From positions 448,001 to 512,000 of the forward strand of contig CAVOGR010000002.1 in the NCBI GenBank assembly GCA_963695555.1: DNA of 64,000 nt, in the 5' to 3' direction. Source of the DNA: an uncultured Gemmatimonadales bacterium. Lineage in GTDB: Bacteria > Gemmatimonadota > Gemmatimonadetes > Gemmatimonadales > GWC2-71-9. The position numbers and the translations under genes are program-made. This document shows, piece after piece, positions 36,548-42,936 of the stretch. Position 1 is the first letter of the stretch; the number at the start of each line of letters is the position of its first letter. The notes under the pieces were generated by a model, which worked only from the letters and a program-made list of their open reading frames with translations, made no database searches and was not told the DNA's origin.

Positions 36548-38513
36548 ATGATCTCCGGTGCCCGAACCTTCATCTCGATTGTTGCCTGTGCTCTGGCGGC
36601 CACCATGTCACTCGAGGGCCAGGAGCCGCCCTCGCCCTCGCGCTCCGTCCCGGAAGGCAATCAGGCGATGTTCGCCCCTCTGGCGGTGACGCCAGCCACT
36701 GACGTCCGCACGGGTAGCGGGGTGCCTGGGTCGGACTACTGGCAGCAACGGGCCGACTATGACATCCAGGTCTCCCTCGATTCCGAGACCCACCGGATAT
36801 CGGGTCGAGAACGAATCACTTACACCAACAACTCGCCGGACGACCTCCATTTCCTGTGGTTGCAGCTCGACCAGAACCTCTTCGCCCCCACCAGCCGTGG
36901 CGCCGTCATGAATGTCTTCGGCCAGCGGGGGGGCGGGGTTCCGTTCGAAGGGGGCTACGCGTTTGACCAGGTAGCCATCGTGCAGGACGGCCAGCGGGCC
37001 GAACCGCATTATCTAGTCACGGACACCCGCATGCGGATCGACCTCGAGCGCCCCTTGAATGCGCGGGGCGGGATGGTGCAAATCGACATTGGCTGGTCGT
37101 TCGTCGTGCCGCCGCAGGGAGGCCGGATGGGACGGCTCGAAACCGAGGACGGCTGGCTCTACACCATTGCGCAATGGAATCCGCGCATGGCGGTCTACGA
37201 CGATGTCAGCGGGTGGAACACCATGCCGTACCTTGGGTCAGGCGAGTTCTACCTCGAGTACGGTACCTTTGATGTCGCGCTCACGGTTCCCCGAGATTTC
37301 GTCGTCGTGGCGACGGGCGAGCTTCAGAATCCACGCGACGTGCTCACCCGCGAGCAACAGCAGCGCCTCGATCGGGCGCGCCGAAGCTCCGAGCGCGTGT
37401 ACGTGGTCGCGCCCGACGAAGTGGGCTCGCCTGCGACGCGGCCGTCCGGTCAGGGTCCGCTCACCTGGCGCTTTCACGCTGAAAAGGTGCGAGACTTTTC
37501 GTGGGCCGCGAGCCGGTCGTTCATTTGGGATGCCGCGTCGTGGGACAATGTCCTCATCATGTCGGCCTATCCCAAAGAAGGCCTCGGGACCGAGCCGAAC
37601 CCCGGTTGGGAGCGATCAACCGAGTACTCGCTGCACACCATCAAATATTATTCCACCGAGTGGTTCCGATACCCCTATCCGGTCGCCATCAACGTCGCGG
37701 GCCCGGTGGGAGGCATGGAATACCCGATGATCGTGTTCTGCTCCGTGCGTGCGCGCGGTCAAGGGCTGTTCGGCGTAACCGATCATGAATTAGGACACAA
37801 TTGGTTCCCGATGATCGTTGGGAGCGACGAGCGGCGGCACGCATGGATGGACGAGGGGTTCAACACGTTCATCAACCACTACTCAAACCTGGCTTTCTAC
37901 GGGGAGGAGGCCAGCCGGTCCGGCCGTACCAACCCCGATGGTATCGCCCGGGCAATGAAGTCGCCCAATGCCACGCTGCCGATCATGACGTACCCCGATC
38001 ACATGGCGGGCCAGAACCTCGGATTCCTTGCGTATGCCAAGCCGGGCGCAGGGTTGGTGCTGCTACGTGATGTCGTTCTCGGGCGCGAACGGTTCGATCC
38101 GGCATTCCGGCAATACATCGCAGACTGGGCCTTCAAGCACCCCGAGCCCGCGGACTTCTTCCGGGCGATCGAGAACGGCGCCGGCGAGGACCTGAGCTGG
38201 TTCTGGCGCGGGTGGTTCTACAGCACGGAGGTGCTGGACCAGGCCGTCGACACGGTGGCCACGTAGTGACCAGGGGAGTCGCATCAGGCTGGCGAATCGG
38301 GGCGGGCTGGTCATGCCCGTGGAGGTGGAGGCCACCTTCACCGATGGCTCCAAGGAGCGATACTCGCTACCGGTCGAGATCTGGATCGGTCGTGACACCT
38401 ACACCCTGACGGTGCCCGGTCCCCGGACCGTCCAGTGTGCTACGGTCGATCCGGACGCCCAACTGCCGGATGTGGACCGGAGTAACAACGGGTGCGGGTT
38501 CGCTACACCCTAG
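36548..38513 (+). pseudogene. Secreted M1 family aminopeptidase with a 1-nt frameshift near 38260
   Basis: Signal peptide, GGMEYP, HELGH-x18-E. The frame stops at 38266, and the C-terminus (SDQGSRIRLANRGGLVMPVE...DVDRSNN) continues in another frame to 38513. Confidence 0.85.
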
Positions 38514-39364
38514 GCGGCTTCGGCCTGGGGCGCGGTCTGCGCCCCACGGCCGTTCCTCCGGGTCACTCGCTTGGCCAGCGAGGCCAACACTAAGAACACG
38601 CCGAACATACAGACCACCACCGGGCCGGTCGGGAGGTCGTAGCGGAAGCTCACAGCCAATCCCGCACCGGACGCGAGCACCCCGGCCGCCCAGGAGATGA
38701 TGGCGAGGGGCAGGTAGCGCCGGGTGAATTGAAAAGCGATGGCCGCGGGCACGACGAGGAAGGAGAACACCAGGAGCACGCCCGCAATCGGCACTGAAAA
38801 CGTGATCACCAGCCCGAACGACAGATAGAACCAAAAGTCCCACCACCGGATGTTCCAGCCGAACGCCACCGCCGAAGCCGGCTGGAATGAGATCGTCAAG
38901 AAGCGGTGTCGCAGGAACCAGTGCACTAGCCCGATCACCGCATACACGGCTGCGAGCCGCAGAATGTGCGGCCACGTGACCCAGAGCAGGGTGCCGACCA
39001 GGATGTCCTTAATGGCCTCGTTGCCCCCCGGCGTCCGGTCGGCGACCAGGATGGCCGCCGCGGACGCCACGACATACACGATGCCGATGATGGCCTCGTG
39101 CGGGACGAGTTCTTTGCCCTTGGTTCGCGTGAGGGCGAAGATCGCGGCTCCGATCGTGGTGAACCCGATTGCGTAAGCAAACGTTGCCGGGGAATCGTGG
39201 GGTGACCCGAGAAAGATGGCGACCGTGGTGCCCAACGCCGCCATCTGCGCCAGCGAGAGATCGACGAAAATCACTTCCCGCGCGATCACGTGCAGGCCCA
39301 AGTAGCTGTGGATTGCGACGATCACCATACACGCGGCGAGCGGGGGCAGGATCAGTTCGAGCAT
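38510..39364 (-). CDS. Metal (Zn/Mn-type) ABC permease
   Basis: YLGLHVIAREVIFVDLSLAQ, EAIIGIVY, GVLLVFSFLVVPA, DLPTGP. Confidence 0.9.
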   Translation of the reverse strand: MLELILPPLAACMVIVAIHSYLGLHVIAREVIFVDLSLAQMAALGTTVAIFLGSPHDSPATFAYAIGFTTIGAAIFALTRTKGKELVPHEAIIGIVYVVASAAAILVADRTPGGNEAIKDILVGTLLWVTWPHILRLAAVYAVIGLVHWFLRHRFLTISFQPASAVAFGWNIRWWDFWFYLSFGLVITFSVPIAGVLLVFSFLVVPAAIAFQFTRRYLPLAIISWAAGVLASGAGLAVSFRYDLPTGPVVVCMFGVFLVLASLAKRVTRRNGRGAQTAPQAEAA

Positions 39365-39377
39365 CGCGTTGTACCTC

Positions 39378-40397
39378 TCACTTGAATGCGGCGGCCAGCG
39401 CCGTGACCCAGGTGTCCATCAGCTGGAAATACGTCTCCACGCCGGGAGCGCCATGGGTGTTCTCGGGCACGATGACGGCCGTCGCGCCGGTCCGGTCGGC
39501 GACCTGCTTGATCTGCGAGCGGCTGAAGTAATTCGACGCGAGCAGCACGGGGATCCTTCGCTCTCGCATCAGACTAATGACGTCATGCACGTGCCGGGGG
39601 GTGGGCGGGATGCCCGGCTTCGGCTCGATGTACTCGACACAGGTGATCCGATACCGCCGGCTAAAGTAGGCCCATTCCTTGTGGTAACAGACTATCTCCT
39701 TGTCGCGAAAAATCTCGGCTGTCTTGAGCCAGCCCGTGAGTCGGCTCGACAGGGGCCGTCCGTCGAGCGTCGTGCGAGTCAGGAATGGCAGCAACTGGTC
39801 GTTGCGCAGGAGATCAAGGGCCGTTTGCGGAGTCAGGATGCGCACCACCTCCGCTCCCATGGTCGCCTCGAGGATGCGCCGCTCGAAGTCGGCCTCGCGT
39901 GCTCGGAAGTAGTCGGCATCTGCCGGCGCCACCCGCTCGAGGCCGCGCAGGATGTTCCGCGCAATCAGGATGGCGTTCAACGGGTCGGTATGAACGTGGG
40001 GATTGCCCGCGGCATGGATGTCTCCCTGGGCCCGGCTCACCGATGCGGGGATCTCGAGCAGTTCGATGCCGGCGTTGGCCGCTACATAGCCGCGACCGCC
40101 CTCGGCCACGTTTCGGTTGTTGGCCCGGTCGAGCAGCGCCGGAACCCAGAGTTCGAGGTCCATGCCCGTGGTCACGAACAGGTCGGCGTCACGCAACAGC
40201 GCCACGAAGCTGGGCTTGGGCTGCACGAAGTGAGGATCCTCATCGCCCTGGGCGATGGAGTTGACCGTGCCGCGGTCACCGACGATTTCACGGGCGATAG
40301 CGCCATACGTCGTGAGGCTGGTGACCACTTTGACCGGCGCCGGGGCCTGCGGCGGGCTGGAGAGGCCCAGAGCGAGAAACAGCATTGAGAGCAGCAT
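39378..40397 (-). CDS. Cluster A-I metal-binding protein (ZnuA/TroA family)
   Basis: Signal peptide; DPHF, GDIHAAGNPHVHTDP, YHKEW. Confidence 0.9.
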   Translation of the reverse strand: MLLSMLFLALGLSSPPQAPAPVKVVTSLTTYGAIAREIVGDRGTVNSIAQGDEDPHFVQPKPSFVALLRDADLFVTTGMDLELWVPALLDRANNRNVAEGGRGYVAANAGIELLEIPASVSRAQGDIHAAGNPHVHTDPLNAILIARNILRGLERVAPADADYFRAREADFERRILEATMGAEVVRILTPQTALDLLRNDQLLPFLTRTTLDGRPLSSRLTGWLKTAEIFRDKEIVCYHKEWAYFSRRYRITCVEYIEPKPGIPPTPRHVHDVISLMRERRIPVLLASNYFSRSQIKQVADRTGATAVIVPENTHGAPGVETYFQLMDTWVTALAAAFK

Positions 40398-40423
40398 GAT
40401 CTATCCTTCGCGCGCGGCGGCGC

Positions 40424-41812
40424 TCAGTACGTTTCGTGCTTGTGGGGCCCCATCGAGAGCACCACCTGCACGCGGAGTTGGTTTGACGTTCCTTCGAGGT
40501 CGCTCTGGCGGTGTTCCCCCTCCAGCCGCAGATAGACGAACTCGCTCTGCCACCAGGTGACGGTTGGGGTAATCCGCCATTCACGGTCGTTGACCCCTCG
40601 CGGGGCCTCGACCCAGTCGTACCTCGCCCCAAATACCCACCGGCGGCTGGTCCGCACCTGGAGATCGGCAAACGCACCGTAGCGGTTGGTGGTCTGGCCC
40701 GCTTCGGTTGCGTGCAGTCGATAGCCCTCAGCCCGGAAGGTGATGTCCCGCCGGGTCGCGGCGTCGGGCGGCCGGTAGGTCAGCCGGAAGTCCAGCCCCG
40801 CCAGACGGCTCCGCAGATCGGCATCGCTGTTGTTGCCGCCGACCCCGGTTACGCCAAGCTGCATATAGGTGCTGCGGGTGAGTTGCCAGAAGCTCTGGAA
40901 CCTGCCGAGGAGCGAGGGTTGGGTGCCGCCCGCATAGAGTGGATCGCTCTCGGCGGTGGTGCCCTGGAGCCAAACTTCGTGGGTGCCGCCGGCGATCGAC
41001 AACGGCAGCGTCGTATAGAGCGACACGCCCACGCCGGCCAAGCCCTCCTCGCCCAGGAACCGCTGATAGACCAGGGGATACTGGCTCTCAGGAAGGGCGT
41101 GCGCGTGCCAACGATTGAGGTCGCCGAGTTGCTGGCGGATCTTGCCCGCATCGACCCGGATGCGTCCCGGCAGGCCTACCCAGTACAGATAGCCTTCTTC
41201 GACCCCGATCTCGTCTTCAGAAAAGGTGAGAAAGATCTTGGCGGTCGAATAGGGATCGAGCGCCGATTGAAACGATACCTCGACCTCACGGAGCTCCGCG
41301 TTGTCGCGCTGCGGACTCTCGTCCCGTGCCGTGAGCAGGACGGTTCCGGTGACGCTGATTTCGGGGTTGAGCACATTCTGGTTCGGCCGGCCCGCCGTGC
41401 CGGAAGGTGCCTTCGGTTGCGTAGAATCACGCTCTGACGCCGCGCCTGCAGCCGCAGCCGCAGCGGCACGGATGGCGGCCAATTCATCGACCACCGTGTC
41501 GGAAGGCGTCCCGCTGGTCTGGGGTGCTGCACAGCGCTCGATGGTGAGGCGATACACCCGGTCTTGGAGCCGGGTGATGGCAGTCGCCAACGAGTCCACC
41601 GCGGGGTCTCCGGTCGGTGTTCGCTGAAGGGAGGCAATCGGTCGCGGGGGGCAAAGCCCGGTGCCGAGCGAATCCAACCTTGCTTCGAGTGCTGTGATGC
41701 GCTGGTGAAGCGAATCAACCGCGGGCCGCAGCTCGTCCTGGGCGGCCGCATTCGAAACGGGCCACAGGAAGAGCGCGCCGACCAGCGCGGCAAGGAGGTG
41801 TGTTCGTCGCAT
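40424..41812 (-). CDS. Outer-membrane beta-barrel with N-terminal coiled coils, putative metal channel
   Basis: Signal peptide, helical region, NPEISV, amphipathic strands, NRWHAH, C-terminal GPHKHETY. Confidence 0.8.
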   Translation of the reverse strand: MRRTHLLAALVGALFLWPVSNAAAQDELRPAVDSLHQRITALEARLDSLGTGLCPPRPIASLQRTPTGDPAVDSLATAITRLQDRVYRLTIERCAAPQTSGTPSDTVVDELAAIRAAAAAAAGAASERDSTQPKAPSGTAGRPNQNVLNPEISVTGTVLLTARDESPQRDNAELREVEVSFQSALDPYSTAKIFLTFSEDEIGVEEGYLYWVGLPGRIRVDAGKIRQQLGDLNRWHAHALPESQYPLVYQRFLGEEGLAGVGVSLYTTLPLSIAGGTHEVWLQGTTAESDPLYAGGTQPSLLGRFQSFWQLTRSTYMQLGVTGVGGNNSDADLRSRLAGLDFRLTYRPPDAATRRDITFRAEGYRLHATEAGQTTNRYGAFADLQVRTSRRWVFGARYDWVEAPRGVNDREWRITPTVTWWQSEFVYLRLEGEHRQSDLEGTSNQLRVQVVLSMGPHKHETY

Positions 41813-41911
41813 TCACGCTCCACGAAAGACCAAGGTTCCTCTCGGGACCCGGGACGCTGGGCATCGGCGGTGCTGTGGAAGCCGTTGTGTGGCGCCCCGG
41901 TAGGGGGTTTC

Positions 41912-42268
41912 TCAGGCGTGGCGGAGAGGAGGAGCGCGTGGTCGAGCGTGAGTGAAGTAGTGGGAGGTGTAGAGCGGCGCGTCCGGCTGGTCGACCTCGA
42001 CGATGGCCGGCACTTGGGCACCTCGAAACCCCGCTGGGTCGAGGGGGGCGTACCGTAGCGGCGCCACGAGTGCGCCCAGGGCGCAGGCCTCGGCGTGGCA
42101 CGCTGTGCTGTCGAGCGCTTCGACGTGTACTTGTCGCGACACGTCGACGGCGTCGCCCCCGTGGTACAGCGCCGCATCGACCACCGTCCGCCCAACCGTG
42201 GCAAACAGGAATGCCAGGCCGAGGACGAGCGACCGCAGCGCGACACCCCGGGAACGAGTCATGGGCAT
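41912..42268 (-). CDS. Secreted leader protein with CHxxxC and a C-terminal RAPP arrest motif (CruR/CutF/DUF2946-like)
   Basis: MPMTRSRGVALRSLVLGLAFLFA (signal)...VH...CHAEAC...HYFTHARPRAPPLRHA*; first gene of the metal-uptake operon. Confidence 0.8.
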   Translation of the reverse strand: MPMTRSRGVALRSLVLGLAFLFATVGRTVVDAALYHGGDAVDVSRQVHVEALDSTACHAEACALGALVAPLRYAPLDPAGFRGAQVPAIVEVDQPDAPLYTSHYFTHARPRAPPLRHA

Positions 42269-42345
42269 GAAGTATAGGGCCAGGCCATGGCGCTGGAAAC
42301 GAGGGCGACCACGGCCTGACCGGTTGCAGGGACCATACCGAACTA

Positions 42346-42366
42346 GTATATTCAATGTATATACAT
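42346..42366. promoter_or_regulatory. Probable toxin-antitoxin autoregulatory operator
   Basis: Perfect palindrome ATGTATATACAT (42355-42366) within GTATATTCAATGTATATAC, just before mazE. Confidence 0.7.
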
Positions 42367-42376
42367 CCCGGACACC

Positions 42377-42619
42377 ATGATGCGAACGCGTATTTCAAAG
42401 TGGGGCAATAGCTTAGGAGTCAGGATTCCCAAGGCTTTTGCCGCCGAGGCCGGCCTCGATGACGGGACGCCGGTGGACATTTCTGTGTCCGGTGGCCGGA
42501 TCGTGGTGACAGCCCTTGGCCGGGAGTACCAGCTCGAAGAACTGGTGGACGGCATCACGGCGGAGAATCGCCACACCGAAACGGATTGGGGACATCCGGC
42601 GGGGGCGGAGGTATGGTAG
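42377..42619 (+). CDS. mazE: AbrB/MazE antitoxin
   Basis: ISKWGNSLGVRIPK...LEELVDGITAENRH...WGHPAGAEVW. Confidence 0.93.
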   Translation: MMRTRISKWGNSLGVRIPKAFAAEAGLDDGTPVDISVSGGRIVVTALGREYQLEELVDGITAENRHTETDWGHPAGAEVW

Positions 42620-42936
42620 TACCCGACCGAGGTGACCTGGTGTGGATTTCCATCGCATCGCGCTCGGACGATGGCCGCTCCAGCCGGCGCCCAGCGCTGG
42701 TCGTATCACCGGCCCGGTACAACGAGCGGGCCGGGCTCGCGCTCATGTGCGCCGTGAGTGGTGCAGCCACAGGGTATCCCTTCGAGGTTCCCCTGCCCCA
42801 GGGCCTGCCTGTGAGCGGGGTCGTCCTGGCCGATCATCTGCGCAGCGCCGACTGGAAAGCCCGTGACGCTGCCATTGCCTGCCGCGTGCCGGCGGAGGTG
42901 GTGGCGGACGTCCTGGCGAAGTTGAAACCACTGTAA
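42613..42936 (+). CDS. mazF: PemK/MazF toxin (divergent)
   Basis: PDRGDLVW...RPALVVSP..YN...GYPFEV...LADHLRSADWKAR; overlaps the mazE stop. Confidence 0.9.
   Translation: MVVPDRGDLVWISIASRSDDGRSSRRPALVVSPARYNERAGLALMCAVSGAATGYPFEVPLPQGLPVSGVVLADHLRSADWKARDAAIACRVPAEVVADVLAKLKPL

Follow-up and report, generated by a model that had tools for sequence, protein, structure and literature searches.

The described leader peptides closest to the element studied here are CruR (Bp2923) of Bordetella pertussis, the prototype of the DUF2946 family (PF11162), and CutF of Rhodobacter capsulatus. Their putative counterpart, encoded in the genome of an uncultured Gemmatimonadales bacterium (assembly GCA_963695555.1, contig CAVOGR010000002.1, positions 448,001 to 512,000), is a small gene that probably codes for an exported arrest-peptide leader and stands at the head of an operon for a porin-like outer-membrane protein, a ZnuA-family binding protein and an ABC-3 permease. 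The whole stretch of 64,000 nucleotides analysed is called the window below, and coordinates refer to it unless a genome or locus is named.

DUF2946/CruR proteins are defined by an export signal, a CxxC motif and the sequence RAPP three residues from the end, with 45 intervening residues (±1-2); their genes come first in copper-related operons, before long intergenic gaps, and the addition of 5 residues between CxxC and RAPP abolishes regulation by CruR (PMC9426467). In cruR, a 'bubble' of C over G carries the Rho-utilisation site (PMC9426467). The stall of CruR at RAPP was shown by toeprint, and a 2025 survey reports RAPP/RGPP leaders before genes for TonB receptors, YcnI, PCuAC and PepSY proteins (PMC12992588). 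A previous sequence-only reading of the window had cited CruR as a case of translational control and CutF as a leader with CxxC and RAPP; both statements need correction, CruR acting by Rho-dependent transcription termination (PMC9426467) and CutF containing CXXXC and PPP (10.1101/2025.02.05.636593).

The leader in the window is like CruR in its place at the head of a metal-uptake operon and the long gap behind it, in its export signal (recognised by eye), in a cysteine motif placed 45 residues before RAPP, and in the position of the C-terminal RAPP 3-4 residues from the stop. A tract of C over G extends from the 3' part of the open reading frame (ORF) into the gap, and the expected logic would be that of CruR, metal present and uptake off. 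It is unlike CruR in falling below the Pfam DUF2946 threshold, in having CHAEAC (C-x4-C) instead of CxxC, and in its length of 116 rather than 145 amino acids (aa); the lineage is Gemmatimonadota instead of Proteobacteria, the mRNA is predicted to be nearly leaderless, and the ligand would probably be zinc. CruR governs a TonB-dependent receptor and a PepSY protein, whereas the target in the window is a 16-strand porin and a ZnuA-type ABC importer. CutF is likewise a Sec-exported DUF2946-type leader with a C-terminal proline stall motif and a downstream ribosome-binding site (RBS) that can pair with upstream RNA; it differs from the RAPP leader of the window in the motifs named above, and in that copper induces the stall, melts a stem-loop and turns on a detoxifying oxidase, while the window's target is an uptake operon (10.1101/2025.02.05.636593). 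In the window a defined, conserved stem-loop is not supported. The RAPP-type arrest peptides ApdA and ApdP, and also SecM (SecM-RAGP), as cited in PMC12992588, resemble the leader in having a RAPP-like C-terminal arrest motif and in being small exported leaders controlling the next gene, but they monitor the Sec/YidC machinery, precede sec genes and have no metal-ligand motif.

The leader gene and its peptide

The minus-strand frame is open from 42268 to 41912 (118 aa) and ends in HARPRAPPLRHA before the stop codon. ATG 42262 is the more likely start, giving 116 aa, because a promoter-like site adjoins it and the database homologues begin MTRS or MIRS; residue numbers are counted from this codon, and a start at 42268 would add Met-Pro. 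The peptide contains CHAEAC, several His residues and a Pro-rich second half, and was thus correctly described in the sequence-only reading, which gave it about 118 aa and the same C-terminus. Six-frame translation of the window yields 15 occurrences of RAPP, of which only that of the leader belongs to an open frame of at least 80 aa and has the stop codon at most 9 residues away.

The N-terminus has a hydrophobic run of 14 residues followed by V-D-A (by eye). This hydrophobic segment is conserved, and Ala30 (in the context [AV]-x-A) is invariant in 26/26 aligned leaders; residues 1-30 probably form a Sec signal peptide or a signal anchor. In the sensor, where His, Glu and Asp abound, H46, E48, C55, H56, E58 and C60 make up the probable metal-sensing motif. 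By the guide of the CruR toeprint (PMC12992588), the stall is expected when Pro111 occupies the P site and Pro112 the A site.

A promoter scan found one site at the leader versus 0.1 expected from shuffles. Its position puts the transcript start a few bases from ATG 42262, so the leader mRNA would be nearly leaderless. In relatives a -10-like box is also seen 5-9 nt 5' of the leader ATG (by eye), and the leaders of several genera appear to be translated from leaderless mRNAs. The boxes (TATACT, TATATT, TATAGAAT) were noted in the window and at L010, L011, L014, L019, L020, L040 and L043, often with TG in front and GGAACT about 17 nt upstream in several genera (by eye). The promoter spacer of the window contains an 8-bp palindrome, GCCATGGC (42284-42291), which is retained in L002 and L003 and could be the operator of a transcriptional regulator whose control adds to that by the leader. 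No Zur-like operator shared by the regions upstream of the leaders was seen by eye.

Conservation and spread in Gemmatimonadota

The porin was used as a query on 41 related genomes and was found in 23, yielding 20 loci, of which two have no upstream DNA and one has only 100 nt, leaving 17 assessable for a leader. A leader ORF ending in RAPP plus 1-9 residues lies directly 5' of the porin gene in 14 of these 17 loci, another one ends RSPPPARA, and the 100-nt partial upstream region shows ...PRGPPTILV before a stop. The order porin, ZnuA, permease is kept in 19 of the 20 loci, the twentieth (L016) being cut. The gap between leader and porin is 99 nt in the window and 48-157 nt across 16 loci.

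Leaders were aligned first as a set of 15 and then as a set of 26. Identity of the divergent, other-genus leaders with the window's leader is 12-26% in the first alignment and 14-29% in the second, 12-29% over both. The first alignment also contains two copies from the same genus and one near-identical database homologue, for which the figure is 74-89%. Across the 26 leaders M1, A30, C60, R109, P111 and P112 are invariant, and E48 and A110 nearly so. The R-A-P-P codons vary synonymously among loci (CCT CCT, CCG CCG, CCA CCC and others for the two prolines), which argues for selection on the peptide rather than on an RNA word. The spacing between Cys and RAPP is 45 residues in the window; among the 26 leaders it is 44 in 16, 45 in six, 43 in three and 40 in one. 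A chance open frame was considered as well and is ruled out by conservation across relatives.

A profile built from the 15 leaders matches 228 of 401 sampled Gemmatimonadota genomes. The best 30 matches carry RAPP (27) or RGPP (3), all 1-9 residues from the stop, and they include 20 new loci, in 17 of which the porin gene comes next. In the remaining three the locus is cut (L031), or the leader is followed by a 463-aa ORF without a match (L033) or by an efflux OEP gene (L050). Leaders of this type, alike in spacing and in RAPP, also stand before TonB receptor genes (L053, L054 and L063). Porin locus L012 comes from genome G018, which is flagged unpublished; G018 is included in the porin-search tally and the equally unpublished G083 and G201 in the profile-search tally, and no conclusion depends solely on these three genomes.

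The 120 database homologues are all unannotated and have no Pfam domain, and the named ones belong to Gemmatimonadales or Gemmatimonadetes. R-x-P-P occurs at most 12 residues from the end in 117 of them (111 RAPP, 4 RGPP and 2 RSPP), with exactly four residues after it in 103, and the spacing from Cys to RAPP is 43-45 in 113/117. CxxC is found in 107 of the 116 classable homologues, and the C-x4-C type of the window in 5. The comparison thus upholds a conserved exported His/Cys peptide with C-terminal RAPP at the head of a metal-uptake operon, as proposed in the sequence-only reading, and RAPP occupies the same column with varying codons; the CHxxxC ligand type on which that reading also relied is a minority form.

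Genomes G019 and G034 have a second ORF of the leader type (L066, 2960-3304, minus strand; L067, 121-474, plus strand), in the order permease, leader, 800-aa TonB-dependent receptor. These leaders end SRAPPASL and SRAPPASSHS, respectively. That of G034 has CHTERC, the same C-H-x-E-x-C type as CHAEAC of the window, while the porin operon of this genome (L009) has no leader.

Relation to the DUF2946 family

With a gathering threshold of 23.7 bits for PF11162, weak DUF2946 matches were obtained for 4/15 and 6/26 relatives (best E = 0.013), and DUF2946 is the top Pfam family for 6/26 aligned leaders. The leader profile and PF11162 coincide above the cut-off at G130:C1:2775-3104 (E = 4.8e-10; 28.3 bits) and at G273:C1:907395-907718 (leader profile E = 5.9e-10), and the profile also matches at least 8 places where PF11162 is below its threshold. 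The nearest named Atlas cluster, which serves as a lead only, comes from Gemmatimonadota; DUF2946 is its top Pfam family and is assigned to 11% of the members. Given these shared places above the cut-off, we take the leader family to be a diverged branch of DUF2946. In the window copy the region reads C55-H-A-E-A-C60-A-L-G, where C60 is the first Cys of the CxxC pair and the second is replaced by Gly; the clade of the window carries C-H-[AD]-E-[AS]-C. Since CxxC is lacking, this copy is filed as a CruR-like variant rather than as a plain member.

The downstream operon and the sensed metal

The operon (38510-42262, minus strand) begins with the leader and continues with the genes listed in Table 1. 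It contains no ABC ATPase gene in the window, and no search for an ATPase elsewhere in the genome was made. The 462-aa protein, termed an outer-membrane gene product in the sequence-only reading, proved to be porin-like: a model built on 13 homologues (pLDDT 72.9) has N-terminal helices and 16 beta-strands, and Foldseek relates it to chitoporin, OprO/OprP, MOMP and DcaP (E 1e-10 to 1e-8), although no Pfam family was matched. Among relatives identity is 40-76% for the porin and 51-95% for the binding protein. The porin family has two invariant motifs, NRWHxH (residues 233-238) and the C-terminal GPHKHE (455-460), each containing a His pair. The two pairs could together make a metal site; the channel, with its 16 strands and an N-terminal coiled coil, is otherwise undescribed.

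The best NCBIfam match of the binding protein is AztC, below the cut-off, and all NCBIfam equivalogs are far below theirs. The ZnuA profile aligns with this protein from residue 230. His56, His134 and His239 are invariant in 18/18 homologues, and there is no Met or Cys site. Three His residues are characteristic of zinc-type binding proteins, and His-His-Glu-Asp of the Mn/Fe type. By this ligand rule the binding protein points to zinc, and Zn(II) is the most likely metal to be sensed, a choice we make with moderate confidence; sensing of a metal other than copper is plausible. In Caulobacter crescentus the first gene of the Zur-activated operon czrCBA-zntA, which serves zinc efflux, is a DUF2946 gene, CC2720 (PMC4176598), and thus hints at an as yet unstudied zinc link of the family. 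Like the leader of the window, for which zinc is likely, this DUF2946-type gene opens its operon, and its link is to the homeostasis of zinc instead of copper; it differs in heading an efflux operon, not an importer, and the study proposed no arrest or leader role for it (PMC4176598).

Copper would be the ligand if the peptide worked like CruR and CutF, with the operon importing copper or being shut under copper stress. Every tested DUF2946 member is reported to be copper-responsive (PMC9426467; 10.1101/2025.02.05.636593), Cys-based motifs are classic Cu(I) ligands, and other copies in the phylum precede TonB receptors, as does cruR. The three ZnuA-type His residues of the binding protein, with no Met or Cys site beside them, the richness of the leader sensor in His, Glu and Asp, the loss of CxxC in the clade of the window and the position of the Caulobacter DUF2946 gene all argue in the other direction, and copper sensing is considered unlikely.

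Proposed mechanism of control

The ORF at 42262-41912 (minus strand) can, with good confidence, be regarded as a real and conserved arrest-peptide leader, a regulatory leader of the CruR/CutF (DUF2946-like) kind. The explanation as a whole, in which a leader stall takes its input from a metal and is read out by the operon, is also judged probable; the stall, the response to metal and the dependence on Rho are features that we infer from the sequence and from its relatives. The leader would be translated from its nearly leaderless mRNA, and the signal peptide would take the growing chain to the Sec translocon. The ribosome would then stall at R109-A-P-P112, four codons before the stop, with the His/Glu/Cys motif held at a fixed 45-50 residues from the peptidyl-transferase centre. 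At this distance the sensor motif would have just left the ribosome tunnel and would be inside the translocon or past it. Metal bound there would change the duration of the stall, and the stall would decide the expression of the downstream porin, ZnuA-type binding protein and permease.

The read-out ranked first, though tentatively, is a Rho-dependent attenuation like that of CruR. The content of C minus G was scanned in windows of 78 nt, as used for cruR. In the 5' half of the leader C-G is near -0.1; it then climbs, is at least 0.2 for windows spanning approximately 42010-41849, and peaks in the strongest such tract of the 64 kb (99.998th percentile of the 78-nt windows, both strands counted). 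In 16/16 loci the maximum over leader plus gap is at or above the 98.3rd percentile of the own locus, and in six it is the locus maximum; the tract is centred at most 25 nt from the R codon in 11/16. Compared with the porin gene, G is depleted at fourfold sites of the leaders (14 lineages, Fisher p = 4e-4), and the genome encodes rho (685.7 bits). By analogy with cruR, the tract at 41900-41977 is a candidate Rho-loading (rut) region, which the stalled ribosome would split. A ribosome stalled there would leave C-rich RNA free only in stretches that are probably too short for Rho. The stalled ribosome amid this C-rich, G-poor tract would keep Rho off, and transcription would continue; metal would relieve the stall, the ribosome would finish, the tract would be bared, and Rho would terminate transcription before or within the porin gene, switching uptake off. 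Such a logic, in which metal relieves the stall and the operon goes off, would be natural for an uptake operon if the leader works as CruR does. RNA-library contigs cover the leader, gap and porin (X1, X16 and X17), and two of them bridge the leader end, the gap and the porin start (X1 record 5, 41682-41967; X16 record 7, 41798-41991); such contigs cannot show level, ends or strand and may include DNA, so that they fit read-through only weakly.

The rival read-out is translational and works without Rho. As in SecM and CutF, the T-H-A-R-P-R codons (or, in a second register, R-A-P) would lock the porin RBS until a stall melts or covers this arm. The exact complement noted in the sequence-only reading does exist: 41951-41944 pairs with 41820-41813 over 8 bp and 41940-41937 with 41824-41821 over 4 bp, with a 3-nt bulge between, and CutF uses such a mechanism (10.1101/2025.02.05.636593). 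In all three contexts folded, GGAG is paired with a probability of about 1, always with codons of the leader 3' part. In 12 of 16 loci, which represent 10 of 14 lineages, the main pairing of the RBS (at least 0.41) is with a segment that starts 12 codons before R and runs up to the stop; no such pairing occurs in the other four (L007, L015, L019 and L020). RBS pairing exceeds that of synonymously recoded versions in 16/16 loci; when composition is preserved by permuting the third bases of fourfold codons, a weak excess remains (13/14 lineages, Fisher p = 0.019), and this shrinkage indicates that the complementarity is for the most part what C-rich Pro/Ala/Arg codons give when they face a G-rich RBS. 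Such pairing may be used in regulation, and is not evidence for the specific helix.

Several results are at variance with the 8-bp helix as a switch. Folding of 41790-41980 does not stand out from that of shuffled sequences (z = -1.37; 18 of 200 as stable), RBS pairing is not above that with shuffled upstream sequence (0.58 in the window versus 0.64 ± 0.11), and the helix is a minor conformer. Its ensemble probability is 0.33-0.38 and that of the 4-bp extension 0.05-0.06, as against 0.5-0.6 for the rival partner at 41969-41963 (three contexts), which lies outside the stalled footprint; forcing the helix costs 2.0-2.6 kcal/mol. In L002, the nearest relative, 3 of the 8 bases of the 5' arm are changed and two pairs lost within a 96%-identical stretch, and the only change in the RBS arm among same-genus sequences makes a G-U pair. 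Over the three same-genus sequences to which the covariation analysis is confined, 34/36 cells pair with 0 compensatory changes, and outside the genus the arm sequences differ. The further proposal that the stalled ribosome frees the RBS did not hold in the folds: masking of the ribosome footprint (P site -13 to +15) left the RBS paired, with a mean over 16 loci of 0.64 unmasked and 0.61 masked, and a change from 0.58 to 0.73 in the window. A scan of 41500-42500 against Rfam (E up to 1) found no family. Unmasking of the porin RBS may operate in place of Rho attenuation or alongside it, and is rather unlikely to be the main route.

The ORF might instead encode a working periplasmic or membrane-anchored accessory protein that binds metal, similar to a chaperone or metallophore, with RAPP as a structural or docking motif. 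Its predicted export, its conserved His, Cys and Glu residues and the fact that it is always encoded together with a transporter would suit such a role. Only the motifs and their spacing are kept, however, and the 48-residue linker varies freely (12-29%) beside a far more conserved porin and binding protein, while RAPP stands 1-5 residues from the stop in 117/120 homologues. RAPP/RGPP is moreover depleted from proteomes except in leaders of this sort (PMC12992588), and CruR itself was neither detected nor produced as a stable protein (PMC9426467). An accessory protein is therefore very improbable.

Several observations weigh against the preferred explanation, a metal-responsive leader stall read out through Rho, or against parts of it. 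The porin operon has no leader in 2 of the 17 assessable loci (L009 and L018), and the same leader type heads OEP efflux genes at L050, L057, L059 and L060, which need the opposite logic. Because leaders of one type head both uptake and efflux genes, and because copper induces the stall in CutF, the sign of the metal effect is unreadable from sequence. The signal peptide is dispensable in CruR and required in CutF (PMC9426467; 10.1101/2025.02.05.636593), which bears on where the metal would be sensed. The window peptide gave no match to Pfam DUF2946 even at E up to 10 or in a six-frame search of its own genome, and the second Cys is lost although the CxxC pair was shown to matter in CruR. As regards zinc, the nearest solved structures to the binding protein are distant and belong to the Mn/Fe/Zn proteins YfeA and MntC (E = 1e-19 and weaker). 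To a large extent the C-over-G tract simply follows from the codons for Pro, Ala, Thr, His and Arg; synonymous depletion of G is not significant in the window leader, with 5 G of 22 sites (p = 0.14), and it is absent in four loci (L004, L010, L013 and L015).

Other features of the region

The intergenic hairpin between leader and porin (Table 1) could serve in pausing or in RNA stability; in L002 one of its G-U pairs has become G-C through a single U-to-C difference, which strengthens the pair. A 5-bp terminator hairpin at 41845-41830 was rejected as a candidate, being not above shuffles (0.5 expected) and having one pair broken in L003. Upstream of the leader a divergent pair of genes on the plus strand encodes mazE-like (42377-42619) and mazF/PemK-like (42586-42936) proteins, and a mazE-like gene adjoins the leader in L004 as well. 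A 19-bp palindrome, GTATATACATTGAATATAC, lies at 42346-42364, just 5' of the mazE-like gene, and is probably the mazE operator.

Table 1. Features of the leader, its operon and the adjoining region (window coordinates)
Feature	Position	Strand	Description
M1 peptidase	36548..38266	+	convergent neighbour after the permease gene
ABC-3 (ZnuB-type) permease	38510..39364	-	284 aa; last operon gene in the window
ZnuA-family (cluster A-I) binding protein	39378..40397	-	339 aa; PF01297 E = 1e-47
Porin-like outer-membrane protein	40424..41812	-	462 aa; signal peptide, N-terminal helices, 16-strand beta-barrel (predicted)
Porin RBS region	41813..41824	-	CGUGGAGCGUGA; Shine-Dalgarno GGAG 41821-41818, five bases before ATG 41812
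Intergenic hairpin	41849..41900	-	9-bp stem, CCGGGGCGC (41900-41892) pairing with GCGUCCCGG (41857-41849); no U-tract after it; in the minimum-energy fold
C-over-G tract peak	41900..41977	-	C 0.51-0.54, G about 0.13, C-G = 0.41; centre 1 nt from the R codon
Leader ORF	41912..42262	-	116 aa and stop; putative diverged DUF2946/CruR-type leader peptide
Arrest motif R109-A-P-P112 (putative)	41927..41938	-	CGC GCT CCT CCT; 4 codons before the stop
Linker	41939..42082	-	residues 61-108, variable, Pro/Ala-rich; sets the 45-residue spacing from the CxxC equivalent to RAPP
5' arm of the proposed 8-bp helix	41944..41951	-	UCACGCUC, T-H-A-R codons; 4-bp extension CACG at 41940-41937
Competing RBS partner	41963..41969	-	ACACCUC, Y-T-S codons; the RBS partner in the minimum-energy fold; not covered by a ribosome stalled at RAPP
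Candidate metal-sensing motif	42083..42127	-	H46-V-E48 ... C55-H56-A-E58-A-C60 (CHAEAC)
N-terminal export segment (probable)	42173..42262	-	residues 1-30; Arg-rich start, hydrophobic run, V-D-A
Promoter-like site	42271..42299	-	sigma-70-like; TTTCCA 42299-42294, 17-nt spacer, TATACT 42276-42271

Novelty and significance

Leaders of this kind are known from CruR, CutF and the RAPP survey; what is new here is the target, the ligand set and the lineage. A literature search found no published link of such leaders to zinc importers or Gemmatimonadota, and no tie of the RAPP motif, arrest peptides or CruR translation arrest to zinc or zinc uptake. The supplements of the CruR paper do not mention ZnuA, ABC-3, zinc or Gemmatimonadota, and the portion of the RAPP survey supplements that was searched gave no match; in both, operons of the present type may appear under other names.

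Both studied leaders of the kind, CruR and CutF, respond to copper. The Gemmatimonadota leaders add a conserved branch, present in 228 of the 401 sampled genomes, called hypothetical in public annotation and unrecognised by Pfam, with a leader that heads an operon for a porin and a ZnuA-type importer. If zinc is the metal sensed, metal-controlled ribosome arrest would not be restricted to copper, and control of zinc uptake would include, in addition to Zur, a post-transcriptional layer. With the arrest codons in the middle of the C-rich tract, the leader offers a simple and testable picture of how a stalled ribosome may block Rho, and the clade of the window, with CHxExC in place of CxxC, is a naturally occurring variant of the ligand set on which the requirements of the sensor can be probed. 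The complete picture of a zinc-sensing nascent-chain switch, with a Sec-exported leader that reads periplasmic Zn, a His/Glu/Cys motif 45 residues from RAPP and a stalled ribosome that plugs a Rho-loading tract, is rather unlikely to be right in all its parts. If true, it would mean that termination of transcription in the cytoplasm is linked by a single peptide to metal present outside it, and that the module may be a general metal sensor which can be re-wired, the sign of its output being set by the surrounding RNA.

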